Below are positions 2,262 to 62,852 of a DNA stretch of 64,000 bases, piece after piece. A program made the translations under genes and the position numbers. This DNA is from a virus: IMG/VR virus record IMGVR_UViG_3300045988_177924. The stretch is one strand, 5' to 3'. The notes below the pieces were generated by a model, which ran no database searches, was not told the origin of the DNA, and was given only the letters and a program-made list of their open reading frames with translations. The number at the start of each line of letters is the position of its first letter. The stretch's first letter is position 1.

Positions 2262-2281
2262 AAGCAAAAGGAGGCAGAAGG

Positions 2282-14808: not shown

Positions 14809-14994
14809 ATGAGTAAATATCACAATTGCCTTCACGCCGAGGGCGATGGATTTGATTGTTTTAAATGTTCAATTTTTATTGAACAAAAACAGGATAATTC
14901 AATTTGCCCTTTTCAGCGTTATTGTCACAACGAAAAACGCTGGGTTTCTACAAATTGTAAGGACAATTGTAAAAATTTTCAGTCGGCAAATTGA
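14809..14994 (+). CDS. Cys-rich miniprotein (61 aa), paralog of 47131..47334
   Basis: ATG lies 2 nt after the stop of the preceding gene, so it is probably coupled and has no own RBS. Has 7 Cys and ends ...CKDNCKNFQSAN, compared with ...CPTECKKFQSKKG in the paralog. Confidence 0.45.
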   Translation: MSKYHNCLHAEGDGFDCFKCSIFIEQKQDNSICPFQRYCHNEKRWVSTNCKDNCKNFQSAN

Positions 14995-15477: not shown

Positions 15478-15684
15478 ATGGGACAAAAATATGAAGGCAC
15501 ACTGATTATTCAAACCAACGATAATTATAGTCCTACGGGCGAATATCGTTTGGAGTCAATACCTGATCTGGCATCCGAAGAAGACATCCTGAAAGGTAAA
15601 AAAGCTTATGGAGCACAGGGCGTGGTATTGAACGGGTCTTATGTCGCACCGGAGAAAGATCCTGAACCTGAACCTGCGGCGTAA
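15478..15684 (+). CDS. small fibre-associated protein (68 aa), tandem paralog A
   Basis: MGQKYEGTLIIQTNDNYSPTGEY... is nearly identical in its first 22 aa to the next gene. Confidence 0.6.
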   Translation: MGQKYEGTLIIQTNDNYSPTGEYRLESIPDLASEEDILKGKKAYGAQGVVLNGSYVAPEKDPEPEPAA

Positions 15685-15744
15685 ACAACTATCGCAAAAG
15701 CATCCACACTATTGGTTATGGGTGATTTGGCAGGAGGAGAAAGT

Positions 15745-16065
15745 ATGGGACAAAAATACGAGGGGACGCTAATTATCCAAACTAATGATAATTATAGTCC
15801 AACAGGAGATTATGTATTAACCCCTCTTGGCAATCAGGCAGATGCGGCCAAGGTTTTAAAGGGTTATTCAGCTTACGATTCGTATGGAAAGGTAATTAAT
15901 GGTACTGGAGAACTTGGTTCGATCGAAAACCCCATTATAGCCAAAACCGAAGAAGAGATGAACAAGCTGAATGTGAGTGAGTTTTTTGGCAAATTTGTTA
16001 AGTATGTGGGACCGACCACGGAAAAATATGTTCAAAACGCTTACTATATAATTACAGAGGGTTAA
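15745..16065 (+). CDS. small fibre-associated protein (106 aa), tandem paralog B
   Basis: ATG 15745 follows AGGAGGAG. MGQKYEGTLIIQTNDNYSPTGDY.... The track start at 15712 is upstream of the RBS. Confidence 0.6.
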   Translation: MGQKYEGTLIIQTNDNYSPTGDYVLTPLGNQADAAKVLKGYSAYDSYGKVINGTGELGSIENPIIAKTEEEMNKLNVSEFFGKFVKYVGPTTEKYVQNAYYIITEG

Positions 16066-44551: not shown

Positions 44552-47035
44552 ATGGCAACATTAGGAAGTCTGCCCATCGGGGCGAAAATAAAAGTACCTC
44601 ATTCGGTAATAGGGGATATCATATTTCTCAAGTGTGACCAAAATCACGAGGGATATCCCGAAAACTCAACGACGCTTATTACGGACAGCATTATTTTATT
44701 CCGTCCGTTTGATGCAAAAGAGCCACAGAATGACACTTTTGCACAACAGAGGAATAAAGAAGGAAACAACCGCTATTCTGTATCAAACATAGACCAATGG
44801 TTAAATTCATCAGCTTCTGCCGGCAATTGGTATTCGCCACAACACTCCAAAGATCAGGCTCCAGACAGCTGGAGTGTTGCAACTCAAAATTTTTATGCTG
44901 CAGATGCTGGATTTCTGAGGGGGTTTAACGCACGGTTTGTTTCAGCACTTAAAGATACTACGATAACAGTTGCGCGAAGCACAACAGAAGACGGGGGCGG
45001 TTATGATACTCTTGTAAGGAAAGTTTTTTTACCGTCAAAAGCAGAACTCTTTAATCAGGCCGAAAACTCAATTATGGAAGGCTCATTGTTGCAGTATTTC
45101 CAAGCAAACACCGATGATATAAGAATAGCTATTATGTCTAGATACTGTGCGGAAGACAACAACAAGCGGGCAGAACAATTAGGCGAATCGATTCGATATT
45201 TACTTGAGGCGGGGAAAAATGGAGCATACCGGTTGAGAACGCCACAAGCTAGCCACGGTTCTTTCGTTAGATACGTAACCACTTCGGGTGCATTATATCA
45301 GAATGCGGCATTTTCTACTTATGAAAGTGGTATTCGCCCAATGTGTAATTTGGCTTCCGACACTTTCGTCTCTGACCAACCCGATAGCGACGGAACTTAT
45401 CAAATTGAAGATCCGCCTATGGAAATTTCTGGCAATGAAGAACCGTTGGGCACATTTGTTTTTCCATTTGTTTATAAGTATAATATACTTAACGCAACCG
45501 GCGTTACCGTGGTTGAAAAACTAAATCAAACACAAGTGCGCAGCTATACTGCCACCAGCGACGAAGAACAAACTTTCGCTTTAACTAATGAGCTGTGGGC
45601 TACTGTGTCAAATGGAGACAACTTCATTCAGATTACCGCCACAAAAGATGACAAAACAGTTACACAAACAAAGCATTTTATTAAAAACTCGACTTTGCAA
45701 CTAAAATACACTGTGAGTCCATCTACAACGACACAACCGACCGCAATCAACGTAGAACTAGACTATGCCAAACCATTTGGCGCAGATTTAGAAGTGTTAG
45801 TATGTAACAACGGCAACGATGAACAACCCACTTGGGAAGATATGACCACGGCGGTCAAAATGGGGGCAAATCACATTTTTAAAAACACCGCGAAAACAGC
45901 CACACAATGGAAACCCATGCTTCAAGTTTCTATAACGCGCGATTCATCAACCGGCGACATAAGATTACGCGGTATTAAAACCGTATTTAACAAAGACCTT
46001 GATCAAGGACGACTTGAAAACATATATGGTGTAGACTTTGTTGGTTCTGAGGATCCAAACGCCCTTGTACGAACGGACGATGCTGTTGGTTTGAATGTAA
46101 CGGTCGGCACTTCAGAAATCACGAGCGATTTCGACAACTGTTATCCTTGGAATAATATCAAAGAGATCACCGACGAATTTGGGAACGTGTTTATCAAGAT
46201 ACCGAAATTCTATAGCAAAATTACAAAAAACGCGGACGGCACCTATAAGCACCAACTTTCTGGCATAAAACATGAAGGTTATGACACATTGTTTAAAGTT
46301 GGGGATAAAGAAATAGACTACGTCTTGGTCGGCAAGTACGAAGGAAGTGGCTCGTCGTCAAAAGTATGGTCGAAATCGGGACAAACGCCGCTTGTAGATA
46401 TTACAATGGACGACTTCCGTAACGGGTGTAAGGCGCACGGCGCAGGCTATCAGCAGTACGACTTTTTGATTGACCTTATCTTGAAAGAATTGTGGCTTGT
46501 CGAAATGGCGACTACAAACTGTCAGTCGATTATGTATGGATATGTCAATGGCTCCTTATCAACGAGTAACACGGGCACAACTGACAGCGTTGCCACTCCG
46601 TCCGGTTCACCAGAAAGCAATACCGACGGCGAACACGCTTGTAAATACCGTGGTATAGAAAACCCGTGGGGTAATATCTCTAAGTGGTGCGACGGTATAT
46701 CATTCAGCGGCTCATCGGTGTATGTATGTACAGAACCAAACGCCTATTCTGCGGGCAAGACTACGGATACTTATGTACTATATGGTGAAAGAGCGGTTAC
46801 CAGCGGTTGGGTAAAGACTGTTGCCCCGCTTAAGGAAAACTCACTTATCCAATACGTAACAAACATCGGTGGCGACGAAAGCACTTATTATAGCGACAAG
46901 TCGTATCAAGGCGGAACCGTTCTCTATTGCGGTTACATCAGCACGAACGCTGGCTTGTGGTCTTGGAATGGTGGCAAATCTGCGTCGTACTCAAGCTACA
47001 GCCTTGGTGGTCGCCTTTGCTATAAACCTGTTTAA
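44552..47035 (+). CDS. receptor-binding protein with C-terminal C-type-lectin/FGE-like domain (827 aa)
   Basis: GGGAGG RBS. The C-terminal ~335 aa are a diverged paralog of the 932-bp repeat domain (..YRGIENPWGNISKWCDGI.. ...GGRLCYKPV*). The N-terminal part has a ..YRLRTP...GIRPMCNL pattern. Confidence 0.6.
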   Translation: MATLGSLPIGAKIKVPHSVIGDIIFLKCDQNHEGYPENSTTLITDSIILFRPFDAKEPQNDTFAQQRNKEGNNRYSVSNIDQWLNSSASAGNWYSPQHSKDQAPDSWSVATQNFYAADAGFLRGFNARFVSALKDTTITVARSTTEDGGGYDTLVRKVFLPSKAELFNQAENSIMEGSLLQYFQANTDDIRIAIMSRYCAEDNNKRAEQLGESIRYLLEAGKNGAYRLRTPQASHGSFVRYVTTSGALYQNAAFSTYESGIRPMCNLASDTFVSDQPDSDGTYQIEDPPMEISGNEEPLGTFVFPFVYKYNILNATGVTVVEKLNQTQVRSYTATSDEEQTFALTNELWATVSNGDNFIQITATKDDKTVTQTKHFIKNSTLQLKYTVSPSTTTQPTAINVELDYAKPFGADLEVLVCNNGNDEQPTWEDMTTAVKMGANHIFKNTAKTATQWKPMLQVSITRDSSTGDIRLRGIKTVFNKDLDQGRLENIYGVDFVGSEDPNALVRTDDAVGLNVTVGTSEITSDFDNCYPWNNIKEITDEFGNVFIKIPKFYSKITKNADGTYKHQLSGIKHEGYDTLFKVGDKEIDYVLVGKYEGSGSSSKVWSKSGQTPLVDITMDDFRNGCKAHGAGYQQYDFLIDLILKELWLVEMATTNCQSIMYGYVNGSLSTSNTGTTDSVATPSGSPESNTDGEHACKYRGIENPWGNISKWCDGISFSGSSVYVCTEPNAYSAGKTTDTYVLYGERAVTSGWVKTVAPLKENSLIQYVTNIGGDESTYYSDKSYQGGTVLYCGYISTNAGLWSWNGGKSASYSSYSLGGRLCYKPV

Positions 47036-47130: not shown

Positions 47131-47334
47131 ATGCCAGACACAAACCGTTTTAATAAAAAATGTAAATTTTTAATTCCCGACGGGAATTTTTATTTGTGTG
47201 CCGCAACTGAAAGCGACCGCATTAAGAATTGCATCTCATTTTGCCCAACCGAGTGCAAAAAATTTCAAAGTAAAAAAGGTAAAACAGCCGAGGATTCCTC
47301 GGTAATTGAAGGAGGAACAAATGGCAGTTTATAA
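47131..47334 (+). CDS. Cys-rich miniprotein (67 aa), paralog of 14809..14994
   Basis: GGGAGG 7 nt upstream of the ATG. CKFLIPDGNFYLC...CISFCPTECKKFQS. Overlaps the next gene by 14 nt. Confidence 0.6.
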   Translation: MPDTNRFNKKCKFLIPDGNFYLCAATESDRIKNCISFCPTECKKFQSKKGKTAEDSSVIEGGTNGSL

Positions 47335-50233
47335 ACCTACTTATTGTTACCCTTATCTTGAACCCGTGGATTTAACCATCCCGGATGGTGAAAAATATTT
47401 TACTTGCCAAATTGACACGTCGAATATTGCAATCACGGGTTACAAGATTGAGGTTTACGACGAAAACAATACACTGGTATTTCCACACAAGGATAATAAA
47501 AATAAGATTAGCCCCGTTAGCGAATTATCAAGTGTAACAAATATAGATGGTCTAAATGGCAGCGAATTGCGTATTCCATTTATTCAACATTTTGAACCAA
47601 AAATTACCGCATCGTATAACGCTATTTATTTTAAGGCGACACGGTATGTGGATTATTACCGAGAAGAAATATGGAACACCGGTAAGACATATAAAATAGG
47701 CGATAATGACCAACTCTGTGAGGAAATTGAGATAGACCCCAACACAAAAAGTAAGATCTTAAAACCGGTTGAGATTGATGGTTCCCTTATATTTGTTGGA
47801 GATACGTTTTTAGCAAAAGACTCAATCTACACCGTAACCGCATCAGGCGCTACGGCTGCCCCTGCGCTGACAGAAATTGATATTATCTACGTTAAAAGTG
47901 GATATACATACGCGGGAAGTATTTTCCAATATAAAGATGGAAAGTTGGTTGAATCTATAGACGGCGTATGGGTAGATTGCGATGGAAACGCTTTATCCCT
48001 ATCTAATCAAGGTAAGACATATAAATGGCAAATAACCTTATACTCTGGTTCTAAAGGAGCTACTCTAGAACCGCCAATGGCCGGTTCGGGGGACCCAGGT
48101 CCTCAAAACCTTGTTGCACGTACCATTAACTACGATGCAATGGCCGACTCTGAATTTGACACACTGTTGACCAGTGGAACAATTCTGGGCTCGACCGAAG
48201 ATAGGATTCAAGGTCCAATAAGTGATAAGATTTATGCTAAACAATGGTTACAGTTGTTACGGAAAGACGGTGACAAGTGGGGGCAAGTTGGCACGCGCAC
48301 TTATATAGAATCATACAGCCAGAGTCTAGGGCATATTTATCCTGTTTCGGGTGATTCTCGTGGTTTTGACAATAGTGATTTATATGATACTAAAACCGTG
48401 ATAGTAAACGACGAAGAAAAAACGATTCCGCCTGCGACTCATTTTGCAGTTTACAAATACTCTAACGATCCTAATTCTATAACTTCACAAAACTCGGTTG
48501 ATGAATCAATTAATTTTGTTTTGACAAATTACGGAGCTTCTCATACCACAGGGAGTTATTCTTATGAAGTGACTGGTAGCACGCAAAAAGAGGCTTTAGC
48601 AAACATTAAGGAATTTAATGAGCAATGTATCGCAGACAGGTCGACCCCGCTTTGTAAAATTAGTGATGATGGAACTTCGGGAGTTTATAGTGGCAAATCT
48701 GTTCTTATTTGGAACAAATCGGGCACAACTGGCACAACTGGGAACCCGCTAACTGGTTATTTCACTATTGGTTTTTCCCTTGTGAATGGTAGTAATAATG
48801 AAAAAATCCCCAAATTTGTGTTTGACATGGTTTATGCTTATCGTAAGGTTTCTTCTTACATCGGTAAAGTGTTCTTTGTCAAAGAGGGCTCTTTCGCGAA
48901 CGAGAATATAGTATCAAAGGCAGAAGCGACAGGAGAACAGGATGTTGCATCTTTGGGCTTCCCAATTCCTTTCAATGAAGAAGAACCTTTGGAAATTTAT
49001 CCTGATGCACCCGACGCAACTGGAAAACTCTATGGTGAAATTTACAAAAACAGTGTTAAAGATGAAATAGGCACCGTTTACGTCTCTCCGTTTGTTGGAT
49101 TACAAGCGGGGGCAAGACTCTATGTTTCCGATGGGACAGTTATTAAAGCACAAACTGTTGACACGACGACTTGGGCAGTAACCTATGGTGTCACCGCACC
49201 TGCTTCGACGAGTGCTTATTCTTCTACTAATCCATTGAAGTACGAAATTCGTACTAACTTTAAATCAAGTGACGAAACGCCGTTTTATGCTTATGATTCG
49301 CCGCGTCTCGTACCTTGGGTTTTAGAACATCTAGCGGTTGCAAACGAGCATGGACATGAGTTTCTATTAGAATCCGGTGGAGAAATTTTAACAGTGCCGA
49401 TTTTGTGTTCACAAAAAGTTGATCGCCGTTATATCGAAGTCGGTGGTCAATATTTACAAGCACAAAACAAATCCTGGACTTCATATCGTTGGCTATTGGT
49501 CGACGCATATGGTAATATCATTCAAGACACTGGCAAGCAATATGATGGCGCCATTAAAACAACCTTCTATGGATTAGATGGACCTACGTCTAAAGCAGTT
49601 GCGCAACATCAGGCGATACCTAATGTCTATTACATTGTGTTAATTGTAGAAGACGAACTTGGCAACGTGTTGTTAATGGGTATTAAGATTGAGGTTACTA
49701 TCGATCCTACCGACTTGATAGCACAGTTTTCAAGGGAGTTTGATTGTAAGACACATTCGGTGAAATTAGGTATTCAAGATTATGGTTACCCCGCTTTATC
49801 AAAGGATAAAGATAATACAGCGATCAAACTTGGTGATGCTGATGGTGTGGTAACACATAAAGGGGTACCATCATATGTTGGCTTACAAGGGGTTGACAAG
49901 GGGACAGGCAACACGGGGAATTCTGTGACAACGCCCTCGTGGAAGGCTGCTTCAAAAATGGCACTCCCCTTAGAAGGAGCGCAACTGAAGCGATTCTTTA
50001 AATACAAAGCCAATCAGATTACTGATATCACACAAACTCCAAGCAAAATGGTCGCTAACAAGGAAGGCAACATAGAATTCCACACACAGGTGGAGTTAGA
50101 TGCCAACTTCTGTGGCGACATCTTCACATATGTGGTTGATATCGGTGACCGTTTTGGCAATACAGATAAATTACGCATTTCATTGGCGTTACCAGAGAAC
50201 TTTTTAACATTACAAGGGGGCGATAAGGCATGA
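47321..50233 (+). CDS. large tail/baseplate structural protein (970 aa)
   Basis: ATG 47321 follows GAAGGAGG (the track start at 47306 is inside the RBS). No recognisable motif. Stop overlaps the next start (ATGA). Confidence 0.6.
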   Translation: MAVYKPTYCYPYLEPVDLTIPDGEKYFTCQIDTSNIAITGYKIEVYDENNTLVFPHKDNKNKISPVSELSSVTNIDGLNGSELRIPFIQHFEPKITASYNAIYFKATRYVDYYREEIWNTGKTYKIGDNDQLCEEIEIDPNTKSKILKPVEIDGSLIFVGDTFLAKDSIYTVTASGATAAPALTEIDIIYVKSGYTYAGSIFQYKDGKLVESIDGVWVDCDGNALSLSNQGKTYKWQITLYSGSKGATLEPPMAGSGDPGPQNLVARTINYDAMADSEFDTLLTSGTILGSTEDRIQGPISDKIYAKQWLQLLRKDGDKWGQVGTRTYIESYSQSLGHIYPVSGDSRGFDNSDLYDTKTVIVNDEEKTIPPATHFAVYKYSNDPNSITSQNSVDESINFVLTNYGASHTTGSYSYEVTGSTQKEALANIKEFNEQCIADRSTPLCKISDDGTSGVYSGKSVLIWNKSGTTGTTGNPLTGYFTIGFSLVNGSNNEKIPKFVFDMVYAYRKVSSYIGKVFFVKEGSFANENIVSKAEATGEQDVASLGFPIPFNEEEPLEIYPDAPDATGKLYGEIYKNSVKDEIGTVYVSPFVGLQAGARLYVSDGTVIKAQTVDTTTWAVTYGVTAPASTSAYSSTNPLKYEIRTNFKSSDETPFYAYDSPRLVPWVLEHLAVANEHGHEFLLESGGEILTVPILCSQKVDRRYIEVGGQYLQAQNKSWTSYRWLLVDAYGNIIQDTGKQYDGAIKTTFYGLDGPTSKAVAQHQAIPNVYYIVLIVEDELGNVLLMGIKIEVTIDPTDLIAQFSREFDCKTHSVKLGIQDYGYPALSKDKDNTAIKLGDADGVVTHKGVPSYVGLQGVDKGTGNTGNSVTTPSWKAASKMALPLEGAQLKRFFKYKANQITDITQTPSKMVANKEGNIEFHTQVELDANFCGDIFTYVVDIGDRFGNTDKLRISLALPENFLTLQGGDKA

Positions 50234-52713
50234 AAGGAAATATAGAAAAAATTTACGGCGTAAACCTTGTTGGTTCTCAAGATCCCAATGCGCTTATACG
50301 TGTGGATGATGCAGTGGGATTGAATATAACAGTTGGCACCTCGGAAATCACAAGCGATTTTGATAGTTGCTATCCTTGGAGCGATATTGAAGAGGTGACA
50401 GACAAATTTGGGAATGTTTTTGTTAAAATCCCAAAGTTTTACAGCAAAATCACGAAAAACTCGGACGGAACTTACAAACATCAACTGTCAGGAACGAAAT
50501 ACGAGGGCTTTGATACGTTGTTCAAGGTCGGAGAAAAAGAGATTGACTATGTAATGGTTGGGAAGTATGAGGGAGGTGGCTCGTCGTTCAAAGTTTGCTC
50601 GAAATCGGGACAAACGCCGCTTGTGAACACCACAATGGATCAGTTCCGTAATGGGTGCAAGGCGAACGGTGCAGGCTATCAGCAGTACGACTTTTTAATT
50701 GATTTGATTATCAAAGAGTTGTGGCTCGTGGAAATGAAAACCACAAACTGTCAGTCAATTATGTACGGTTATGTGGTGGGAAACCAATTCAAAGGAATCA
50801 CGGGTACTACAGACAGCGTTGCCACTCCATCGGGTTCGCCAGAGAGCAACACTGACGGTCAACACGCCTGCAAATATAGGGGAATTGAAAATCCGTGGGG
50901 CAACGTATGGAAATGGTGTGATGGCATATCGTTCAGTAACAACTCAGTGTACATATGCACAGAACCAACCTTTTATGAAGCGGCAAAAGTCACAGTACCT
51001 TATGTATATTACGGCACTTGTCCGTCAGACAGCGGATATGTTAAGACCGTGGCTCCGCTCGCGGAAGGCTCGCTCGTTCAATATGTTACTGCGGTTGGAG
51101 GGGACAGAAACACTTATTATTGTGACTCGTCTTATAAAGGTGGAACCGTTCTCGCCTGCGGTGGGGGTTGGAGCAATGGTGGGGTCGCTGGCTTGTGGTG
51201 CTGGCATGGTAACGTTTCTGCGTCGCTCTCGCATCCTGACTTTTGTGGTCGCCTTTGCTATAAACCAGTTGCTTCCTTTAACCCCCTGCGTAACCGTCTT
51301 AATTGTATGGTTAAGAGCAACTCCACTATGCTCGATTGTGTTGGACTGCCTATGTTCCCATTAGCGACAACAACTACCGAAGCGTTTTACTTACAACCTG
51401 CATCGTGGGCCGATTCCGAAACGGGTGACTTAACCAAATATGGGAACACAGAACTCGAATACCTCAATTACCCTCATCCTTTTGACACCCTCACCGGGGA
51501 GCAGATGAGATATGACAACATTAACGAGTACATTAATACAAAAAATCCACGCACAATTGGAGAATGTTGTTTGCAGCCCATTGCTACCTTGGGTTGGCAA
51601 CCACAAACCTGGACGGGATTAACGGATTTTAATGGAAGCTACGTTTGGACCGATGGAGCTCGCGTGTATTACTCGAGTTCATCTCAACAATACCAATTAG
51701 AGCCCTACACTTCAGTTTGGACGCCCAAAAAATGGCAAGGTCCGTTAAATTATTTTGACCTTGATGGAAATAACATTTGGAGCGACGGGTCGACGATTTA
51801 TTACTCAGCAAGCGTTGAAGAACAATATGAACTTGTTCCAAATACTTCTACTTGGATACTCAAAACCTGGAAAGGGTTTACACCTTTACAAGGCGAGAAT
51901 ATCTGGACCGACGGAACAAATATATATTACTCCACTAAAACGAAAGTGAATTATCAATTAGACAAGACCACCTCGACGTGGAATAAAAAAACTTGGGGAG
52001 GATTGTTGACGGATTTTGAGGGTAAGAACGTGTGGACAGATGGAGAGAACATATATTACTCCTATGGCAATTTTCAATATCAGCTCGATCTATCAACGTC
52101 TACTTGGAAACAAAAAACATGGAGTGGAACCAAACCCGAGGCTATAAGTATCTGGACAGACGGAACCAATGTTTATTCTTCCGCTGGTCAACACCAATAT
52201 CAATTAGACAAAGCAACATCTACTTGGAATCCTAAACCCTGGACGGAGTTAACATCGTTCTATGGATTTAATGTTTGGACCGCTCATGGTAATGTATATT
52301 ACTCTGAAGGGGATAAACAATATCAATTGCAAGTGCCAAAAACGAATCAATACAACGTTTGGACCGACCTAAAACGAGTTCAGGTTGTCACTCCGGCGGG
52401 GCCGCGCGTGGTACAAACTAACGAACCCGCAAAGTGGGATGATACAAAATACTGGGTAGAAGGTTGGGATAAAGAAACAGATACTCATATGGTACAAGTC
52501 AAACGTCACCCACAACTAACCAATAAAACACTCAATATTGATTGTTATATGAAAAACATTGATGATTTATACACAGGGTTGGAAACTTGTACTCTCTCAT
52601 ATGAGGACGGCCCTGACGGTAATTCTGGAACGTGGTATCTTAAAAAGCCAGATGGTTCGACCTACATTACGCTCAAAGTCACACAAACACAAAAGCAGGA
52701 GGGGCAATCATGA
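50230..52713 (+). CDS. receptor-binding protein: N-terminal C-type-lectin/FGE-like domain + C-terminal six-unit WTDG..IYYS propeller-like array (827 aa)
   Basis: aa 36-345 are encoded by the 932-bp perfect repeat. nt ~51590-52330 encode six ~40-aa units (..QYQLD..TSTW..K.W.G...F.G..(V/I)WTDG.N(I/V)YYS..). Confidence 0.65.
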   Translation: MKGNIEKIYGVNLVGSQDPNALIRVDDAVGLNITVGTSEITSDFDSCYPWSDIEEVTDKFGNVFVKIPKFYSKITKNSDGTYKHQLSGTKYEGFDTLFKVGEKEIDYVMVGKYEGGGSSFKVCSKSGQTPLVNTTMDQFRNGCKANGAGYQQYDFLIDLIIKELWLVEMKTTNCQSIMYGYVVGNQFKGITGTTDSVATPSGSPESNTDGQHACKYRGIENPWGNVWKWCDGISFSNNSVYICTEPTFYEAAKVTVPYVYYGTCPSDSGYVKTVAPLAEGSLVQYVTAVGGDRNTYYCDSSYKGGTVLACGGGWSNGGVAGLWCWHGNVSASLSHPDFCGRLCYKPVASFNPLRNRLNCMVKSNSTMLDCVGLPMFPLATTTTEAFYLQPASWADSETGDLTKYGNTELEYLNYPHPFDTLTGEQMRYDNINEYINTKNPRTIGECCLQPIATLGWQPQTWTGLTDFNGSYVWTDGARVYYSSSSQQYQLEPYTSVWTPKKWQGPLNYFDLDGNNIWSDGSTIYYSASVEEQYELVPNTSTWILKTWKGFTPLQGENIWTDGTNIYYSTKTKVNYQLDKTTSTWNKKTWGGLLTDFEGKNVWTDGENIYYSYGNFQYQLDLSTSTWKQKTWSGTKPEAISIWTDGTNVYSSAGQHQYQLDKATSTWNPKPWTELTSFYGFNVWTAHGNVYYSEGDKQYQLQVPKTNQYNVWTDLKRVQVVTPAGPRVVQTNEPAKWDDTKYWVEGWDKETDTHMVQVKRHPQLTNKTLNIDCYMKNIDDLYTGLETCTLSYEDGPDGNSGTWYLKKPDGSTYITLKVTQTQKQEGQS
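50335..51266 (+). repeat. 932-bp direct repeat, copy A
   Basis: Matches 56531..57462 at a constant offset of 6,196 nt. I checked both junctions base by base. Interior identity is inferred from three identical translated frames in the ORF track. Confidence 0.85.
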
Positions 52714-55063: not shown

Positions 55064-57469
55064 ATGAACAGAACAAGTTATGACTTTCTAGATGTGTTAA
55101 AGGGGACGATTGACGATAAGGTATCCACCCTTGACCAGACTATCTATTGTAAAGTAGTTGGTGTTAACGAGGATTATACGTTGGATGTCACCATTGTACC
55201 CGATGAACACACTCGTGTTAGAAATGTCGTGAACGCTTCAAAATATGAATTTAAGATGGGCGATTATGGCATCCTATATAAGATTGGTAATAATTTAGCT
55301 AATGCGTTCATTATTGCTAAATTGGGGCCGTCGTATGCCGATAATCAGCCCTTGAGTAAACAAGTGGCCGATGAGAATGTTGGCAACAATAATTCTGGGG
55401 GGACGGCGACCGTTGCTCTTAAAGACAAAGGGTATGCCACCAAAACATATGTAGACGCGCAGGATGATAAGAAACTTGATAAAACCGGTGGCACGATCAC
55501 GGGTCCTTTAACTATTGGGGGCGACCTTACTGTTAATGGTACGACCACGACAGTCAATAGTAACACGCTGACGGTCAAAGATAAACTTATTGAGGTTGCC
55601 AAAGACAACACTACAACGCTAACTTCCCCTGCGGGTATTATTGTTCCTAAATATAACGGGACAGATTACGGCGCGTTGGTTATTGACAGCGATGGTAATG
55701 CTAAAGTTGGCGACGTTCAACTCACCGCCGGTGGAGATATTGATGTCAATCACAGCGATCTTCAAACGCTTGCAACCCGCACGGGGCTTCAGGATGATCA
55801 ACTGGTAAAATGGGATGAAGAGAAGAAAACGCTGGTTCCTGACACGACGGTGGCTTCTAATGCTTCGTCGGCACTTTCTAAAGCGAATGCTAACACAACG
55901 GAGATCACAAACATCAAAAAAGGCACGACGAGTGTTGGCAAAGCGGATTCCGCAGACAAGCTATCAACAGCGCGAACAATTTTTCTCATAGGGGATGCAA
56001 CAGGCTCGACAACATTTGACGGTAGCGCCAATAAAGATATCAATGTAACCCTATCAAAAACTGGAGTTACGGCAGGAACACATAACACTGTAACAGTTGA
56101 TGCCAAGGGTCGGGTGACCGCCGCTTCGAACACTCAGGCAAGTCAAGTGACCGAATTTGTAGGCAATGGCACCGATACAATTGTTGATATTGCACACACT
56201 TTCGGTAAAGACGTCTTGGTTCAGGTGTTTTTAACTGGACAACAAGTTGGGGCGGATACTGTAGACGAATTAGTGAGCGTAGATGTGTTTACAGCCAACA
56301 ATAAGGTTAAGCTAGTGTTCGCAACCGCTCCAAAACTTACTGAAAGATTCAAAGTTGTAATTTTAAGCGGTGGCAGCGTCGGTGGCAGCGGCGGTGGCGG
56401 TGGCAGCGGCGGTGGCGGTGACAGTAGTGTCGGTGACCTCGCCAAAATCTACGGTGTCGATTTAGTTGGTTCGAAAAACCCAGATGCACTTGTTCGCACC
56501 GATGACGCTGTTGGCTTGAACGTCACTGTCGGCACCTCGGAAATCACAAGCGATTTTGATAGTTGCTATCCTTGGAGCGATATTGAAGAGGTGACAGACA
56601 AATTTGGGAATGTTTTTGTTAAAATCCCAAAGTTTTACAGCAAAATCACGAAAAACTCGGACGGAACTTACAAACATCAACTGTCAGGAACGAAATACGA
56701 GGGCTTTGATACGTTGTTCAAGGTCGGAGAAAAAGAGATTGACTATGTAATGGTTGGGAAGTATGAGGGAGGTGGCTCGTCGTTCAAAGTTTGCTCGAAA
56801 TCGGGACAAACGCCGCTTGTGAACACCACAATGGATCAGTTCCGTAATGGGTGCAAGGCGAACGGTGCAGGCTATCAGCAGTACGACTTTTTAATTGATT
56901 TGATTATCAAAGAGTTGTGGCTCGTGGAAATGAAAACCACAAACTGTCAGTCAATTATGTACGGTTATGTGGTGGGAAACCAATTCAAAGGAATCACGGG
57001 TACTACAGACAGCGTTGCCACTCCATCGGGTTCGCCAGAGAGCAACACTGACGGTCAACACGCCTGCAAATATAGGGGAATTGAAAATCCGTGGGGCAAC
57101 GTATGGAAATGGTGTGATGGCATATCGTTCAGTAACAACTCAGTGTACATATGCACAGAACCAACCTTTTATGAAGCGGCAAAAGTCACAGTACCTTATG
57201 TATATTACGGCACTTGTCCGTCAGACAGCGGATATGTTAAGACCGTGGCTCCGCTCGCGGAAGGCTCGCTCGTTCAATATGTTACTGCGGTTGGAGGGGA
57301 CAGAAACACTTATTATTGTGACTCGTCTTATAAAGGTGGAACCGTTCTCGCCTGCGGTGGGGGTTGGAGCAATGGTGGGGTCGCTGGCTTGTGGTGCTGG
57401 CATGGTAACGTTTCTGCGTCGCTCTCGCATCCTGACTTTTGTGGTCGCCTTTGCTATAAACCTCTTTAA
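55064..57469 (+). CDS. central spike / fibre protein with C-terminal C-type-lectin/FGE-like receptor-binding domain (801 aa)
   Basis: N-terminus (..IYCKVVGVNEDYTLDVTIVPDEH..MGDYGILYKIGNNLANAFII) resembles OB-fold spike N-domains (gp5/Gp138-like). Fibre shaft follows, then a poly-Gly/Ser linker SGGSVGGSGGGGGSGGGGDSS, then the repeat-encoded domain. Confidence 0.55.
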   Translation: MNRTSYDFLDVLKGTIDDKVSTLDQTIYCKVVGVNEDYTLDVTIVPDEHTRVRNVVNASKYEFKMGDYGILYKIGNNLANAFIIAKLGPSYADNQPLSKQVADENVGNNNSGGTATVALKDKGYATKTYVDAQDDKKLDKTGGTITGPLTIGGDLTVNGTTTTVNSNTLTVKDKLIEVAKDNTTTLTSPAGIIVPKYNGTDYGALVIDSDGNAKVGDVQLTAGGDIDVNHSDLQTLATRTGLQDDQLVKWDEEKKTLVPDTTVASNASSALSKANANTTEITNIKKGTTSVGKADSADKLSTARTIFLIGDATGSTTFDGSANKDINVTLSKTGVTAGTHNTVTVDAKGRVTAASNTQASQVTEFVGNGTDTIVDIAHTFGKDVLVQVFLTGQQVGADTVDELVSVDVFTANNKVKLVFATAPKLTERFKVVILSGGSVGGSGGGGGSGGGGDSSVGDLAKIYGVDLVGSKNPDALVRTDDAVGLNVTVGTSEITSDFDSCYPWSDIEEVTDKFGNVFVKIPKFYSKITKNSDGTYKHQLSGTKYEGFDTLFKVGEKEIDYVMVGKYEGGGSSFKVCSKSGQTPLVNTTMDQFRNGCKANGAGYQQYDFLIDLIIKELWLVEMKTTNCQSIMYGYVVGNQFKGITGTTDSVATPSGSPESNTDGQHACKYRGIENPWGNVWKWCDGISFSNNSVYICTEPTFYEAAKVTVPYVYYGTCPSDSGYVKTVAPLAEGSLVQYVTAVGGDRNTYYCDSSYKGGTVLACGGGWSNGGVAGLWCWHGNVSASLSHPDFCGRLCYKPL
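56531..57462 (+). repeat. 932-bp direct repeat, copy B
   Basis: See copy A. Identity ends 7 nt before the stop codon of this gene. Confidence 0.85.
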
Positions 57470-57687: not shown

Positions 57688-59082
57688 GTGAAGAATTATA
57701 GTGACATCACAGAGAGTCTAGATATCACGACAAAGCAATATGTTGATCAAGGTTTATCTTCTAAGGCAGACATAAGCGAATTGGATAAACGCGTTAAGCT
57801 TTCGACAGCTAACGCAACCGTAGGCGCAACGGACAAACCGATTTATGTAAAAAACGGCACCGCAATGGTTGCTACCGACGTGATGAAAGAGGCTTTTCTG
57901 CAATGGGGTGGAAAAAACTTTTCCGCTGATTATGGACCTCTTGACGCCGCCTTAATCTCCGACCTTGGGGCTGACAGGTTTGCTTTTATACCCGCAGCCA
58001 AATGGCAGGTTGAATATTCACGCGACAATGGTAGGACTTGGCAAGATTATGGTGCTACTGACGTGCAAAAATTATCTTTAACGTCGGTGGGTACCAGTTT
58101 GTCCATTGGTAAAGCGACTTCTGAAAATAAAGCGACTGCCGATTATAAGCTACGGCTTACATTAACAACCACAAATACTGTTTATTCCGTATTAAACAAA
58201 TTTGCAATAGATGTGTCGACAAATGGTTCAACAGGGTGTTATGTCACCATCGAAGGGCGCACTAAAGCAAATGTAGACGCGGGGGCTAATACTTGGGTGA
58301 CATTTGCGGAAAATATCCCTGTATCTGGTTGGTCAGGCTGGAACATCATTAACACCTCAGGAATTACAACACACGGGAATACAAATAACCAGTATGCAAA
58401 TTTAAGGTTTACTTTTGGGTGTACAGGCGGAAGTTCTACATATTCTGGGTTGCAAATTCGTCGCCTAAAAGCATTCGGTGGTGTTGGTTGGCAAACACCG
58501 TCAAATATGGCAAAATATGGTTCTTTGTATCGGTACGATTATTCACAAAATGCTTTGTTCCCTGCTGATGTGTATATTCAAAATAATATAAAAGTTGCAA
58601 GTATTAACGATGTACACAACGGAACTCTTACCATACAAAAGAACGGAGAGAAAGTTCAGACTTTCAGTGCAAACCAAAGTTCGTCCGTGACAGCAAACAT
58701 AACAGTTCCTACAAAAGCAAGTGATGTCAATGCTTTGTCACTTGACGGCGGAACTATAAACAAGAGTAAGACTATTAAAATGGACGCCTCTGCTAATTCT
58801 GATGGGGCGAACTTAAAATGGGGAACAGTTAATCACAAAAATCCTTACATCGGTTATGCTTCCGACCAAGTAGATGGGACATTTGTTGTAGGAAGCTTGC
58901 TTGGTACTAACTATGCTTCTGGTCTTGCAATTGGTGGAGGTTCTGGTAATTTATTGTGGAAAGGAACAAAGGTAGCTACAACAAGCGATATAACGGCCCA
59001 CAGCAACATCGTCGCCACTCAAACGACGTTGGGACATATTAAGATGTACGTCGAGGGCGACACATTATATTTAAACACATAG
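57688..59082 (+). CDS. tail fibre-like protein (464 aa)
   Basis: GTG start 9 nt after AAGGAGG. N-terminal TTKQYVDQGLSSKADISELDKRV is typical of fibre N-termini. Confidence 0.55.
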   Translation: MKNYSDITESLDITTKQYVDQGLSSKADISELDKRVKLSTANATVGATDKPIYVKNGTAMVATDVMKEAFLQWGGKNFSADYGPLDAALISDLGADRFAFIPAAKWQVEYSRDNGRTWQDYGATDVQKLSLTSVGTSLSIGKATSENKATADYKLRLTLTTTNTVYSVLNKFAIDVSTNGSTGCYVTIEGRTKANVDAGANTWVTFAENIPVSGWSGWNIINTSGITTHGNTNNQYANLRFTFGCTGGSSTYSGLQIRRLKAFGGVGWQTPSNMAKYGSLYRYDYSQNALFPADVYIQNNIKVASINDVHNGTLTIQKNGEKVQTFSANQSSSVTANITVPTKASDVNALSLDGGTINKSKTIKMDASANSDGANLKWGTVNHKNPYIGYASDQVDGTFVVGSLLGTNYASGLAIGGGSGNLLWKGTKVATTSDITAHSNIVATQTTLGHIKMYVEGDTLYLNT

Positions 59083-59089
59083 GTGAGTT

Positions 59090-60379
59090 ATGGCATTAAA
59101 AGCAAACAATGTTTTAATAAAAAGTATTGAGGCGAATAATAATACCACTGTTGGCACGGCGAAGCCGATTACGTGGAAGACATCTTGGTCTCAACCATTT
59201 GTAGGATATGGCGATTACGTGTGGACTGATGGCATAGACACATATTATTCACGCGCCGCAGCACAATATATACTTAATAAGTCTACTTCTACTTGGAACG
59301 CAAAAACCTGGAATGGGTTCACAAGTATTGCTGGTGATCGTATATGGACTGATGGTACCGATATTTATTATTCAAACGGTATAGAACAATATATACTTAA
59401 TAAGTCTACTTCCACTTGGAGCGAAAAGACTTGGAATGGGTTAACAAGTTTTGTTGGTGATCGTATATGGACTGATGGTACCGATATTTATTATTCAAAC
59501 AATAGAACACAATATATACTTAATAAGTCTACTTCCACTTGGAGCGAAAAGACTTGGAATGGGTTAACATATTTTGATGCAGTGTATATTTGGACAGATG
59601 GAACAAATATATACTATTCTTCGGACACAAGCCAATATCAATTGGATAAAACAACTTCCACGTGGAGTGTAAAAACATGGACAGGATTGACATCGTTTCG
59701 CGGATGGTATATTTGGACTGATGGTACTAATATTTTTTGTTCAAACGACCAAAACCAATACCGACTTAACAAAAGCACATCTACATGGGAGCCTCAAATC
59801 TGGAACGGGTTAACCAATTTTTTGGGTCAACGTGTCTGGACCGACGGCACTAATTTTTATTACTCAAAAGAGGACGATCAATATCAGCTCTATCCCCCTA
59901 CTCCCATCCATTATTGCTACAAAGGCGACACCTGTCAATGGGTTAAACCATATACTATCACCATCAAGGTAACCGGGACTCCCAATGCTAATATTAAGGT
60001 CATCATCTATCGCTCGAGCAACGCAAAAGGACAAGAGCCGAGTGCGGTTTACGATTCCTCCGGCGGCGAAAGCTCGTATGTGATAAATGTAGCGTCGACG
60101 GCCGCCGACGGTCAGCAAATAGTTGGGTATTATGGTGACACGCTGTATGTTAAGGCACAAAGTTATTCTAGCGGTTCCTACCGTTATAACATTAGTGGAC
60201 AATCCTATACCGTTACTGGAGATGGACAAATCACCGTTAATGTAAGCCACTCCGCAACGTGTTCGTCGTGTAACACATCGGCACTTAAAAATATTTGTAA
60301 TACTCGGTGTAACACAAATTTGAAGCACATTGGCATATGTAGTGGTACATCTAAAACATCTGGCATATGTATGGTGTAA
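59090..60379 (+). CDS. WTDG..IYYS propeller-repeat protein with Cys-rich C-terminal tail (429 aa)
   Basis: Six ~41-aa units QY.LNKSTSTW..K.WNGLT.F.G..IWTDGT.IYYS. The last 41 aa are ATCSSCNTSALKNICNTRCNTNLKHIGICSGTSKTSGICMV (6 Cys). Confidence 0.7.
   Translation: MALKANNVLIKSIEANNNTTVGTAKPITWKTSWSQPFVGYGDYVWTDGIDTYYSRAAAQYILNKSTSTWNAKTWNGFTSIAGDRIWTDGTDIYYSNGIEQYILNKSTSTWSEKTWNGLTSFVGDRIWTDGTDIYYSNNRTQYILNKSTSTWSEKTWNGLTYFDAVYIWTDGTNIYYSSDTSQYQLDKTTSTWSVKTWTGLTSFRGWYIWTDGTNIFCSNDQNQYRLNKSTSTWEPQIWNGLTNFLGQRVWTDGTNFYYSKEDDQYQLYPPTPIHYCYKGDTCQWVKPYTITIKVTGTPNANIKVIIYRSSNAKGQEPSAVYDSSGGESSYVINVASTAADGQQIVGYYGDTLYVKAQSYSSGSYRYNISGQSYTVTGDGQITVNVSHSATCSSCNTSALKNICNTRCNTNLKHIGICSGTSKTSGICMV
59264..59632 (+). 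repeat. three tandem 123-nt coding repeats (propeller blades) with long identical stretches
   Basis: Units start at 59264, 59387 and 59510. Units 1 and 2 share an identical ~45-nt 3' part, and units 2 and 3 share an identical ~60-nt 5' part. Confidence 0.8.
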
Positions 60380-60393
60380 TATAGGAGAGTGCT

Positions 60394-60711
60394 ATGCAGT
60401 CAATTACGTATTTATTAACCGATAACATTTATAACGAGTTATTGCGTCTAACAACACAACTGAGTGACAGTGTGGACAACTACAATTGGTTGTTTAAACT
60501 AACAGACGCAACCAAACAACAACTCGGTGTGACTCAAAAAACGCTCGACGATGCTTTTCAATTTTATACTAGCACATTAGAGGCGTATCATAAAAAAATT
60601 GAAGAGTTGTTTCATTTGTTGCAATTTTATTATCCCAATATGGTGCGCATCGAACCACAATACGATGGCTTAATTATAAAAAGAGAAGTTTTAGTATGGG
60701 TGAACGATTAG
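60394..60711 (+). CDS. small helical protein (105 aa) between the Cys-tailed protein and the radical SAM enzyme
   Basis: GGAGAG RBS. The 3' end overlaps the radical SAM start by 16 nt. No motif. Confidence 0.6.
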   Translation: MQSITYLLTDNIYNELLRLTTQLSDSVDNYNWLFKLTDATKQQLGVTQKTLDDAFQFYTSTLEAYHKKIEELFHLLQFYYPNMVRIEPQYDGLIIKREVLVWVND

Positions 60712-61823
60712 ATAAACAGGTAACAATAATATTTCATATCACTTCAAATTGTAATTTGAGATGTACCTATTGTTATCAACAACATTGTGATACAAAACAA
60801 ATTATTAAACTCGAAGACGCAAAAAAGGTGATTGATTGTTTGATCGACCGAAAGCTTAGTAAGTCAACACCTTTTGATGCGTTGGTGTGCGATGATTTTG
60901 ATAATGTGATGCTAAACTTTATTGGCGGAGAAGTAACTCTATATATGTCGATAGTAAACGATATATGTGATTACTTTTTCCGCCAGTGCCTCGAGCACAA
61001 GTTTTACGATCTTGTGTCTCGTAGCCGTATTACTATTGACACCAACGGCACGACTTATTTCAACACAGATGTTCAAGATTTTATTCACAAATATAAAGAT
61101 AAATTACTCTTTGCAATAACTATCGACGGACCTCGCGAGTGTTTTGATAAGTGCCGACGAGATAAAAACGGCAATTCGGTGTTTGATAAAGTTGAAAAGG
61201 CCGTTAAACAGCATTTTAGTGATTTTGGATGTGAAACGACTACAAAACTGACATTCGCGCCCGATAATATTCAATACTTTTTTGAAAGTTGCAAATATCT
61301 GGCCTCACTAGGTTTTACGCATTTAAAACATAGTATTGATGTCAACTATATCCCAGATGACAAGTTTTTAAAAGAATATAGGCAACAATTGTTAAAAACT
61401 ATTGAGTGGATTAAAGTTACCCACACTCCATTAACGCTTTCCGCGCTGGAAGTGGAATACACCAAAAACTTGCAAATATGCACTTGTGGATTGGCTACAA
61501 AAGCAGGCTTCACAATTGATTGGAATGGTGATATTTATATTTGCTTCAGATTTTGCGAGGACAGTCAAGGGGCGAAGAAGATTCCTATTGGCAATATCAA
61601 CACGGGTATATCCAATACTGCGTTTTTAGAACAAATGCAGTGTCGCAATTTTAATAATTATAAAAAAGAGTGTTTGGATTGCGAATGTTCGAGCGCTTGT
61701 AGTGTTTGTCCGGCGGATAGTTATTATATGTACGGTGATATCAATAAACCATTTCAACGGTGTGCTCTCACCAAGCTCGAAGCCGAAATGTCAAAAATAT
61801 ACAAAGCAAAATTAGGGAAATAA
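60696..61823 (+). CDS. radical SAM enzyme with C-terminal SPASM-type Cys cluster (anSME/peptide-maturase family, 375 aa)
   Basis: SNCNLRCTYCY (CX3CX2C) at aa 17-27. GGEVTLY (GGE SAM-binding motif). C-terminal CTCG..(x11)..NGDIYICFRFC...IGNI...CLDCECSSACSVCPADSY, typical of SPASM auxiliary Fe-S domains. Confidence 0.85.
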   Translation: MGERLDKQVTIIFHITSNCNLRCTYCYQQHCDTKQIIKLEDAKKVIDCLIDRKLSKSTPFDALVCDDFDNVMLNFIGGEVTLYMSIVNDICDYFFRQCLEHKFYDLVSRSRITIDTNGTTYFNTDVQDFIHKYKDKLLFAITIDGPRECFDKCRRDKNGNSVFDKVEKAVKQHFSDFGCETTTKLTFAPDNIQYFFESCKYLASLGFTHLKHSIDVNYIPDDKFLKEYRQQLLKTIEWIKVTHTPLTLSALEVEYTKNLQICTCGLATKAGFTIDWNGDIYICFRFCEDSQGAKKIPIGNINTGISNTAFLEQMQCRNFNNYKKECLDCECSSACSVCPADSYYMYGDINKPFQRCALTKLEAEMSKIYKAKLGK

Positions 61824-61844: not shown

Positions 61845-62852
61845 ATGGCAACCAATTATAAGATAAACAATGTCGATATCGACGAAATATATGAAACATT
61901 TGAGACTTCGGTTGCAGAGCAATATGGCGTGACAGATAGCAAATTTACCGATTCTACCGCCAAATTTAAGGGAAACGGACAACCGTTGAAAACCGCCATT
62001 GGAAAAACATTTCCCACAAGCGCTGGTACACATTTAGGTGGTTCAAATACCTGTACTCAATACAAAGTAAATGGGCAGCCTATCGATGTAGCCCTTAAAG
62101 GCTGTAGACCCATAGGGATTCCATTAGCAACGTTATCGCCAGGCACTCACTATGTAAACCGTGTAAACGGGGAGACCTGGCTTTCAACAAGTGCTAATTC
62201 CGCAACAGGAACACGCCTGAATTATAACCCCAAATATATTTTTGTAGAAATTCAAGGCGGCGGCGGCGGTGGAGCAGGCAGTTCTGGTGTCTGGTGCTCT
62301 GGCGGTGGCGGAGGAGGTGGTTATACTTTCACGGGTATAGCACTTCCTGAAAATTCATATATAAAAATAGTTGTTGGCGAAGGTGGTCACCGTGGAGAAA
62401 ACAGAGAAGATGGTCACGACGGTGGAACTTCTTACTTATATAATGCTAATGGTAGCATTATTTTACAGGCTAATGGTGGTGGAAAAGGAAGAAAAACTGA
62501 CGATGGTCAAGGGACACCAGGTACTTATAGTGGTGGTAATGGACTGAATGGCGGTTATGGTGCTGTTAAAGAACACGCAGGTGGAGGAACAGCTTCTACT
62601 ACATTAACTTATGATAAACCAGAAGGTACCACATTTGTGCGTGGTGGTAAATCAGGGGGTACAACTGGTGGTAACAATCACGGTGGAGGCGGTGGAGCAT
62701 CTGCCTTTGCTAACGGTGCAAATGGTGACAGTAGAGAAAAACCATCGTCGCCAGGTATTCAAGGAAGTGGTGGCGCTGGTGCTGGGTTCCGCGCAGGTCG
62801 TGCTAATCCAGGAAGTGCTGGTGGCGAAGGGTTGGCGAATATTTACTATTGA
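61845..62852 (+). CDS. glycine-rich fibre-associated protein (335 aa)
   Basis: GGAGG RBS. EIQGGGGGGAGSSGVWCSGGGGGGGYTF..VVGEGG..GG..GGGG tracts like the glycine-rich domains of phage tail proteins. Confidence 0.55.
   Translation: MATNYKINNVDIDEIYETFETSVAEQYGVTDSKFTDSTAKFKGNGQPLKTAIGKTFPTSAGTHLGGSNTCTQYKVNGQPIDVALKGCRPIGIPLATLSPGTHYVNRVNGETWLSTSANSATGTRLNYNPKYIFVEIQGGGGGGAGSSGVWCSGGGGGGGYTFTGIALPENSYIKIVVGEGGHRGENREDGHDGGTSYLYNANGSIILQANGGGKGRKTDDGQGTPGTYSGGNGLNGGYGAVKEHAGGGTASTTLTYDKPEGTTFVRGGKSGGTTGGNNHGGGGGASAFANGANGDSREKPSSPGIQGSGGAGAGFRAGRANPGSAGGEGLANIYY

Follow-up and report, generated by a model that had tools for sequence, protein, structure and literature searches.

The 64,000-nucleotide stretch of viral DNA analysed here (IMG/VR record IMGVR_UViG_3300045988_177924, referred to below as the window) contains three consecutive genes on the + strand, encoding a modular, tail-fibre-like target protein of 429 residues (59090..60379), a small partner protein of 105 residues (60394..60711), and a radical S-adenosylmethionine (SAM)/SPASM enzyme of 375 residues that comprises a catalytic core only (60696..61823). 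An original prediction made from the nucleotide sequence had proposed that the enzyme crosslinks or otherwise modifies Cys residues at the C-terminus of the target. The three open reading frames (ORFs) are located where that prediction placed them, and the small ORF, which starts 14 nt past the stop codon of the 59090 fibre gene with AGGAG in front of it, overlaps the ATG of the enzyme gene by 16 nt.

The target protein begins with a conserved segment of ∼13 residues, continues with a region of six repeat blades and then a conserved C-terminal module, and ends in the six-Cys tail. The repeat region is the interchangeable part and contains six tandem repeats of exactly 41 residues (59156..59893, + strand; consensus WTDG...IYYS...QY.LNKSTSTW..K.W.GLT.F), in which WTDG recurs at residues 45, 86, 127, 168, 209, and 250; these repeats probably form a six-bladed propeller. 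The C-terminal module (59927..60253, + strand) is beta-rich, carries the tail, is nearly invariant in close relatives, and is a candidate docking element resembling a leader. It includes the motif YYGDTLYVKAQSYSSGSYRY (60128..60187, + strand), 24 residues ahead of the first tail Cys, which distant targets have in common and which appears in one of them (locus L186) as the variant FYGDTLYVKKSQYSSGDYTY. The regular expression [YHF]YG[DE]...Y.SGSY.[YF], derived after its targets had been seen, matched only targets of the window's enzyme clade among the 11,547 six-frame ORFs (1.68 million residues) of the fetched DNA, in every case 24–32 residues ahead of the tail's first Cys. Neither phmmer nor jackhmmer detected homology between the C-terminal module in the window and the distant targets, and the likeness is confined to this short post hoc motif. 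An AlphaFold2 (AF2) model of module plus tail has a predicted local distance difference test (pLDDT) score of 51.8, with the tail below 50 and the module beta-rich at low confidence; so poor a model cannot tell a disordered tail from a compact one.

The tail itself, the proposed core for enzymatic modification, is the 41-residue segment ATCSSCNTSALKNICNTRCNTNLKHIGICSGTSKTSGICMV (60254..60376, + strand). Its six Cys residues, three CNT motifs, and two GIC motifs are exactly as originally described, the Cys lying at residues 391, 394, 403, 407, 417, and 427 with the spacing C-x2-C-x8-C-x3-C-x9-C-x9-C-x2-end. Since Cys accounts for 1.2% of the window proteome, the probability of at least six Cys in a given 41-residue stretch is ∼1e-5; elsewhere in the window this density is reached only by the enzyme itself and one miniprotein of 61 residues. 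The window's tail contains no Asp or Glu (some relatives' tails have a single Asp at a position that is not conserved), no aromatic residue usable for cyclophane formation, and one CXXXCXXX unit, CNTRCNTN. The motif [CS]x[PA]xR is absent from the fibre protein, and CxPxR is absent from every protein of the window.

A nucleotide search of GenBank phages with this region gave no match, and a protein search gave distant relatives only (≤29% identity), mostly in unannotated records. Six close relatives (L001–L006) are present in IMG/VR, with enzymes 96–99% identical and fibre proteins 66–86% identical to those of the window, and in all seven close phages a Cys-tailed protein is encoded directly upstream of the enzyme. 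The close-relative fibre proteins range from 178 to 612 residues; the N-terminus, C-terminal module, and tail are kept and the middle is swapped, to the extent that the shortest (L004, 178 residues) is entirely without the 41-residue repeats. All six tail Cys are invariant and fixed in position in the seven phages. The CNT and GIC motifs, offered in the original prediction as a hallmark of the tail, are present in the window but vary in relatives (CNV, CHT, CTT; GVC, GMC, SMC), and the conserved feature is the set of six Cys positions. From the seven close sequences, a small sample with non-independent pairs, the ratio of nonsynonymous to synonymous substitution rates (dN/dS) is estimated at 0.08 for the module, 0.71 for the whole tail, and 0.80 for its non-Cys positions. 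In the tail, therefore, the Cys framework stays constant and the loops change freely; the module that carries it is strongly conserved, and the N-terminal parts ahead of that module can be exchanged.

The enzyme has the CX3CX2C motif (C19, C23, C26; 60750..60773, + strand) that holds the SAM-cleaving [4Fe-4S] cluster, and a SPASM region (residues 264–356; 61485..61763, + strand) whose seven conserved Cys would suffice to hold two auxiliary [4Fe-4S] clusters. As originally reported, both Cys sets are present; they are also invariant in 16 homologues, the second with the pattern C264-x13-G-x4-C283; C326-x2-C329-x5-C335-x2-C338; C356, in agreement with the SPASM motif CX9-15GX4C...CX2CX5CX2-3C...C. 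The SPASM model TIGR04085 matches over residues 264–356 with 30.9 bits (cutoff 27). Pfam PF04055 scores 24 bits (E 5e-5) relative to a gathering score of 29.5, and full-length NCBIfam radical SAM models match with E values down to 1e-47. The best NCBIfam match is TIGR04115, the CXXX-repeat target family (163 bits, cutoff 350, E 1.2e-47), followed by PapB (NF047865; 121 bits, cutoff 340, E 4.7e-35, aligned across the whole PapB model), QhpD (TIGR03906; 79.5 bits, cutoff 453), the SCIFF maturase (TIGR03974; 75 bits, cutoff 425, aligned only from model position 99), and the anaerobic sulfatase maturase, anSME (TIGR03942; 58 bits, cutoff 349). In PHROG the enzyme matches phrog_1802 (E 3.5e-29). 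Because every score lies below its curated cutoff, the enzyme belongs to none of the TIGR04115, PapB, QhpD, SCIFF, and anSME families. Membership of the last four was rejected on these scores, and identity as a sulfatase maturase was rejected on the 58-bit anSME score together with the lack of a C/S-x-P-x-R target motif. Judged by its profile matches, the enzyme is a peptide maturase of the Cys-rich-peptide kind and not an anaerobic sulfatase maturase. The original prediction had left open a SCIFF-type or an anSME assignment; classification by hidden Markov models places the enzyme among Cys-peptide maturases and away from anSME, but closest to TIGR04115 rather than to SCIFF. In the protein, 18 residues precede the first cluster Cys and 19 follow the last SPASM Cys, and the SCIFF, QhpD, nif11, and CcpM maturase models align to it only from model position ∼80–100; it is thus a bare catalytic core with no room at either end for the precursor-recognition element (RRE) found in systems for ribosomally synthesized peptides that are modified post-translationally (RiPPs).

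The small partner protein is predicted by AF2 with high confidence (pLDDT 94.8) as a three-stranded sheet packed on a long helical hairpin in the order β-α-α-α-β-β, namely β(2–7), α(10–34), α(38–44), α(48–79), β(83–91), and β(94–103). The model has no significant neighbour in the PDB (best E 0.4, helical bundles, no RRE among them), and its matches in BFVD are weak and limited to uncharacterised phage proteins of ∼90 residues (TM 0.55–0.71, E 0.02–0.07). No relevant match was found in Pfam or NCBIfam. A PqqD-type RRE was rejected both on sequence (Pfam, NCBIfam) and on fold (AF2, PDB comparison). The suggestion that this protein is a recognition or chaperone element agrees with its translational coupling to the enzyme; by fold it is not a PqqD-type recognition element. 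An exhaustive profile search of 1.84 billion representative proteins yields a family of 8 real clusters, and in all relatives that have the small protein its ORF overlaps the enzyme start, by 8–28 nt. Strict co-occurrence with the enzyme clade, position, and translational coupling together make a role as a subunit for presenting or chaperoning the substrate likely.

The arrangement persists well beyond the close phages. In the enzyme's own clade, co-occurrence was scored where the fetched DNA covers the upstream flank of the enzyme gene, and a Cys-tailed protein is encoded upstream of the enzyme at locus L186 (enzyme 52% identical to that of the window) and at L015/16, L017/18/25, L019, L102, L103, L100, and L101 (35–40% identical; P0002–P0010). 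Locus L186 was reached through a new member (P0119) of the small-protein profile search and contains the same three genes, with identities of 52% for the enzyme, 37% for the small protein, and 41% for the target; its target is a 531-residue propeller protein whose tail, CMPQCTTSVKVNKCGSQCNKSEAAIAACGDNSSFNRMCLN, has almost the Cys spacing of the window and very different loops. Among the other targets, that of L015/16 has 186 residues and ends VSCNAACSTSASSSCKTAICSRSIGEGSV, those of L017/18/25 and L103 have eight-Cys tails, and those of L019 and L102 (477 and 464 residues) contain repeated CxxCSAVxTCG units. The L100 target (3–3950, 1315 residues), directly upstream of the enzyme, has a seven-Cys tail in its last 60 residues, and at L101 the target is a short ORF, rich in Cys, that continues into a segment resembling the small protein. 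Across the clade the tails vary from 4 to at least 14 Cys and in places, as with CxxCSAVxTCG in L019, contain repeat units, which fits an enzyme that modifies repeats processively better than a single metal site. Except in L100 and L101, a protein of 101–112 residues with an FYYP-type motif is encoded between target and enzyme and overlaps the enzyme start. In several of the distant loci the gene before the target encodes a Peptidase_S74 tail-fibre chaperone domain.

The converse cases agree with this pattern. The same propeller repeats occur without a Cys tail in tail-region proteins of unrelated phages (L013 and L014), and no radical SAM enzyme gene is present in the DNA fetched for them; an enzyme retained without a tail, the case named in advance as contrary to the prediction, was not found within the clade loci that cover the upstream flank. 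The co-occurrence of tail and enzyme holds, as far as relatives could be traced, in the close phages and in the distant lineages of the clade. The profile classification and this co-occurrence, two checks named with the original prediction, both favour it. The window's enzyme clade was not found in 185,579 representative cellular genomes. The other substrates that had been put forward are not supported: the Gly-rich protein encoded after the enzyme (61845..62852) does not recur next to the enzyme in L015, L017, and L102, and the Cys-rich miniproteins at 14809 and 47131 lie 13–46 kb from the enzyme gene.

Some of the distant loci show further peculiarities. At L101 (4436–5023) there is one continuous ORF of 195 residues with a Cys-rich N-terminal half and a helical C-terminal half, the latter at the position of the small protein and overlapping the enzyme start, with a YPN..R.E motif as the sole link to the small-protein family. 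Its interpretation as a ‘Rosetta-stone’ fusion was not confirmed as homologous, the first profile match being circular and an independent profile giving a probability of 0.6%. At L100 the Cys-tailed ORF of 1315 residues has in-frame stops under translation table 11 and the translation of the enzyme gene differs from the query, which suggests that this phage uses stop-codon reassignment. At L017 (7289–8284; L103 2135–3130) the enzyme gene is followed by one for a protein of 331 residues that differs from the Gly-rich protein of the window and whose N-terminus, MKKSLTIATIVMVLVLAVSLTTATYAWFSATASATVES, is long, hydrophobic, and signal-like.

A sister clade of related enzymes is common in phages. 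Related enzymes were found by a profile search at more than 443 phage loci, and one of these enzymes (L028), 31% identical to that of the window, is a bona fide TIGR04115 member (431 bits, cutoff 350) whose neighbour passes the TIGR04114 model for Cys-rich-repeat targets. An ORF with at least 6 Cys per 41 residues lies within 2.5 kb of 33 of the 34 non-redundant phage enzymes, and such Cys-dense ORFs make up 41 of 262 ORFs near the enzyme, whereas of 158 more distant ORFs 0 qualify (Fisher p = 1.6e-9). This threshold was set arbitrarily, and the count includes a few antisense artefacts. The partner proteins of this clade, encoded in hundreds of phage contigs, have 108–464 residues and consist of an N-terminal domain of ∼110 residues followed by long CXXX runs with up to 91 Cys; they are assigned to phrog_6085, ‘unknown function’. 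Examples beside a TIGR04115 enzyme are found at L087 (3178–4572), L051 (2903–4015), and L028 (6247–7110), with many more among L026–L099. A small ORF of 100–126 residues overlaps the enzyme start in these loci as well. These ORFs are positional equivalents of the window's small protein with a similar predicted order of helices and strands; homology between the two was sought with hhalign and not detected (probability 0.1%). Relatives of 27–34% identity also occur in Clostridia genomes, again beside CXXX-rich ORFs (61–473 residues), and the cellular relatives L107, L115, and L120 are paired with short precursors of 61–66 residues. Low-identity matches from Paracoccus in the search of cellular genomes probably belong to the QhpD family.

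The window corresponds to one half, the structural one, of a large, gut-type tailed phage, with genes for a terminase, a portal, a tape measure protein of 3775 residues, and several tail proteins. The three genes lie at the end of the tail-fibre block, after the tail proteins encoded at 44552, 50230, 53788, 55064, and 57688, the first four of which have PHROG tail matches. The 429-residue target fits a tail fibre by its position in this block and by its modular layout with conserved ends, an assignment drawn from gene order and sequence organisation. These observations support an interpretation, to which we assign a probability of roughly 0.58, in which the three genes form a phage maturation cassette where the small protein assists the enzyme in modifying the Cys residues of the fibre tail, most likely into thioether rings. 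Late in infection the 429-residue protein would be made, and the 105-residue protein would be produced in fixed ratio to the enzyme through translational coupling. Since a recognition domain is missing from the enzyme itself, the role of presenter is proposed for the small protein; it would bind the conserved C-terminal module, the tail, or both, and offer the 41-residue tail to the enzyme. The enzyme would then cleave SAM to generate a 5′-deoxyadenosyl radical, which would abstract hydrogen from a carbon of a tail residue, and that carbon would be bonded to the sulphur of a Cys bound at an auxiliary Fe-S cluster, giving up to six intramolecular thioether rings analogous to those of sactipeptides and ranthipeptides. 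Thioether rings are the most likely product by likeness to the nearest characterised relatives of the enzyme. If the tail is retained on the mature protein and the protein is part of the virion, as we infer, the fibre would end distally in a small polycyclic knob that, unlike a disulfide-bonded one, would be insensitive to reducing conditions and would combine a fixed Cys scaffold with variable loops.

Several points weigh against this interpretation. The gene order, the family placement of the enzyme, the joint inheritance of the three genes, the selection pattern of the tail, and the modelled fold of the small protein are observations, whereas binding by the small protein, thioether chemistry, retention of the tail, and a virion location are inferences. 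Modification of the tail is thus a prediction from genes and sequence comparison. The enzyme falls under every curated family cutoff, and no description of the product or chemistry of TIGR04115 was found in the literature searched, which did not cover most subscription-journal papers. The fibre protein does not match the TIGR04114 target model and contains only the single CXXXCXXX unit; Pfam, PHROG, and NCBIfam (NCBIfam E ≤ 0.1) provide no sequence family for the 429-residue target that would mark it as a virion protein. The small protein does not have the RRE fold and has no detectable homology to the small ORFs of the TIGR04115 clade, L100 and L101 have no separate small ORF, and the apparent fusion in L101 cannot be confirmed as homologous. 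A short enzyme outside the clade (P0022 in L104), 30% identical to that of the window, has no Cys-rich neighbour in the fetched DNA. Finally, the pLDDT of 51.8 leaves room for a compact tail fold held by metal or disulfides.

The tail may be the substrate of a different radical SAM chemistry, such as formylglycine formation, C- or S-methylation, epimerisation near Cys, or carbon–carbon crosslinking. The lack of both a family assignment above cutoff and a published TIGR04115 product leaves room for such reactions, as does the range of the SPASM families matched, which includes cyclophane-forming, sulfatase-maturing, and thioether-forming enzymes; moreover, the regiochemistry of PapB varies with its substrate (PMC12373016). 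However, the strongest similarities are to enzymes that direct thioether formation at Cys (PapB, QhpD, and the SCIFF maturase), within the tail it is the Cys that are invariant, the anSME target motif C/S-x-P-x-R is absent and the anSME match weak, and the tail lacks the aromatic residues that cyclophane formation would use. Another chemistry acting on the tail is considered unlikely.

Alternatively, the Cys tail might be a zinc or iron site or form disulfides after lysis, in which case the enzyme would act elsewhere and the synteny would have no functional link. The CxxC...CxxxC spacing is compatible with metal binding, fixed Cys with variable loops would also suit a disulfide or metal knot, the tail could not be resolved by AF2, and the portal and several other window proteins end in Cys clusters with no enzyme nearby. 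Such a tail would nevertheless leave unexplained why the pairing persists as far as enzymes of 35% identity, in loci whose targets otherwise differ, as do the genes around them, and why the nearest curated family is defined by its Cys-rich neighbours, found for 33 of 34 phage clusters. The range of Cys counts, odd counts among them (7 in L100), and the repeat units are unlike a single defined site, and the tiny small-protein family is found only with this enzyme, translationally coupled to it and directly after the target gene. A metal or disulfide tail appears rather improbable.

The end of the late region is a common position for morons, and a phage-carried RiPP or bacteriocin moron, in which the N-terminal part of the target would serve as leader or carrier and the Cys-rich peptide would be cleaved, released at lysis, and act on other bacteria or the host, could account for the position of the cassette (in some sister-clade phages beside lysis genes, as with the amidase of L033 and in L028), for a hypervariable core with fixed Cys as is typical of RiPP precursors, and for the short precursors of the cellular relatives L107, L115, and L120, but is judged to have little probability given that no protease or exporter gene is found near the cassette among its window neighbours, which are tail proteins, that the propeller repeats recur in tail-region proteins of other phages, that the layout of conserved ends and swapped middle is the same in the adjoining tail-fibre gene, and that purifying selection on the module (dN/dS 0.08) is stronger than a disposable leader needs.

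The proposed three-gene maturation cassette shares features with several known systems. The closest is the TIGR04115/TIGR04114 pair, an in-silico NCBIfam definition abundant in phages from the same kind of samples as the window: its enzymes have the same CX3CX2C and seven-Cys SPASM layout and lie beside a Cys-rich, low-complexity target rich in Ser, Thr, Gly, and Asn, with a small ORF overlapping the enzyme start. The window enzyme differs in forming a separate clade, with 35–40% identity within the clade and ∼30% to TIGR04115 members, and in lacking their N-terminal extension; TIGR04115 partners present tens of CXXX units behind an N-terminal domain of ∼110 residues, whereas in the window 6 irregularly spaced Cys end a modular protein of 429 residues. 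In the maturation of freyrasin, the ranthipeptide maturase PapB forms multiple Cys thioether rings within a single short core at the C-terminus. PapB joins Cys to the side chain of Asp or Glu or to the residue bearing the C-terminal carboxylate, and the leader docks on an RRE (PMC12373016). As the window's tail contains no Asp or Glu, it lacks the usual acidic side-chain acceptor of PapB; in addition, the window enzyme is without room for an RRE and its proposed substrate is a large protein and not a peptide precursor. SCIFF peptides are matured by a SPASM enzyme and resemble the tail in having six Cys in a C-terminal stretch of ∼40 residues (six in forty-five for SCIFF), but the SCIFF maturase has an N-terminal domain that is missing from the window enzyme, and the fibre protein gave no match to the SCIFF precursor model in the NCBIfam search. 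In the maturation of quinohemoprotein amine dehydrogenase, the radical SAM/SPASM enzyme QhpD installs Cys thioether crosslinks in QhpC, a small dedicated periplasmic subunit in which Cys is crosslinked to Asp or Glu and which stays a working subunit. That system is cellular and metabolic, whereas the cassette described here is viral and its proposed role structural.

A broader interpretation is that phages, by means of a dedicated radical SAM enzyme and a private partner protein, install several redox-insensitive thioether rings in the distal, receptor-binding tip of a fibre as a RiPP-type maturation of a virion structural protein, much as antibiotic peptides are matured by bacteria, that the fast-evolving loops tune adsorption, and that the CXXX proteins of hundreds of gut phages are likewise heavily crosslinked structural elements. 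This extension is tentative and, in our estimation, doubtful.

Other features of the window concern the tail genes around the cassette. The fibre gene just upstream of the target (57688..59082) encodes a protein with a conserved N-terminus (MKNYSDITE...) and a conserved C-terminus (...ATQTTLGHIKMYVEGDTLYLNT); in its equivalents in L001–L006 the swapped middle is of very different length (179–510 residues), which indicates cassette exchange in both adjacent fibre genes, 57688 and 59090. A phrog_5302 ‘tail protein’ domain occurs in three window proteins, C-terminally in the products of 44552..47035 and 55064..57469 and N-terminally in that of 50230..52713; the 55064 product also has 4 Cys within its last 41 residues, with the terminal stretch ...CGGGWSNGGVAGLWCWHGNVSASLSHPDFCGRLCYKPL. 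The tape measure protein (28113..39440), of unusual length at 3775 residues, points to a very long tail. The Gly-rich protein after the enzyme matches Pfam Gly_rich_2 (E 5e-10) and, weakly, phrog_863 ‘tail fiber assembly’. Similar Gly-rich proteins also flank canonical CXXX cassettes of other phages (L026 6282–8042, L028 869–2182, L033 1879–2784), and their pairing with such cassettes may be a loose functional association or mere tail-fibre neighbourhood.

Far from the enzyme, the Cys-rich miniproteins encoded at 14809..14994 and 47131..47334 contain 6 and 5 Cys, and the portal (2688..4640) has a five-Cys cluster at its C-terminus, CAICGAELDNEDDVLCDDCCEAY; all three look like ordinary metal-binding motifs. 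The adjacent ORFs 15478..15684 and 15712..16065 have the segment MGQKYEGTLIIQTNDNYSPTG in common, a similarity that points to a local duplication.

SPASM Cys-peptide maturases and their pairing with Cys-rich neighbours are already known, at least as in-silico families. New here are a separate enzyme clade that is apparently confined to phages, the novel fold of a partner protein private to it, a short six-Cys core with irregular spacing that ends a large, modular, tail-fibre-like protein, and the frequent occurrence of the related CXXX system in phage late modules. No report of a phage system pairing a radical SAM enzyme with a Cys tail was found in the literature searched, and an earlier description elsewhere is possible. 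Radical SAM/SPASM maturases are known for their action on small secreted peptides and for the maturation of a few cellular enzymes; crosslinking of a phage particle protein by a SPASM enzyme was not found in the same literature. The TIGR04115/TIGR04114 family gains a concrete setting in phage late modules, and the 41-residue core with its three genes offers a compact system for working out the chemistry of this family. If the tail is thioether-stapled, it would represent a new class of post-translational modification for virion biology and a natural scaffold, its rings fixed and its loops free, of interest for engineering host range and for peptide display, and it would show how phages of anaerobes brace external structures covalently where disulfides are unreliable.

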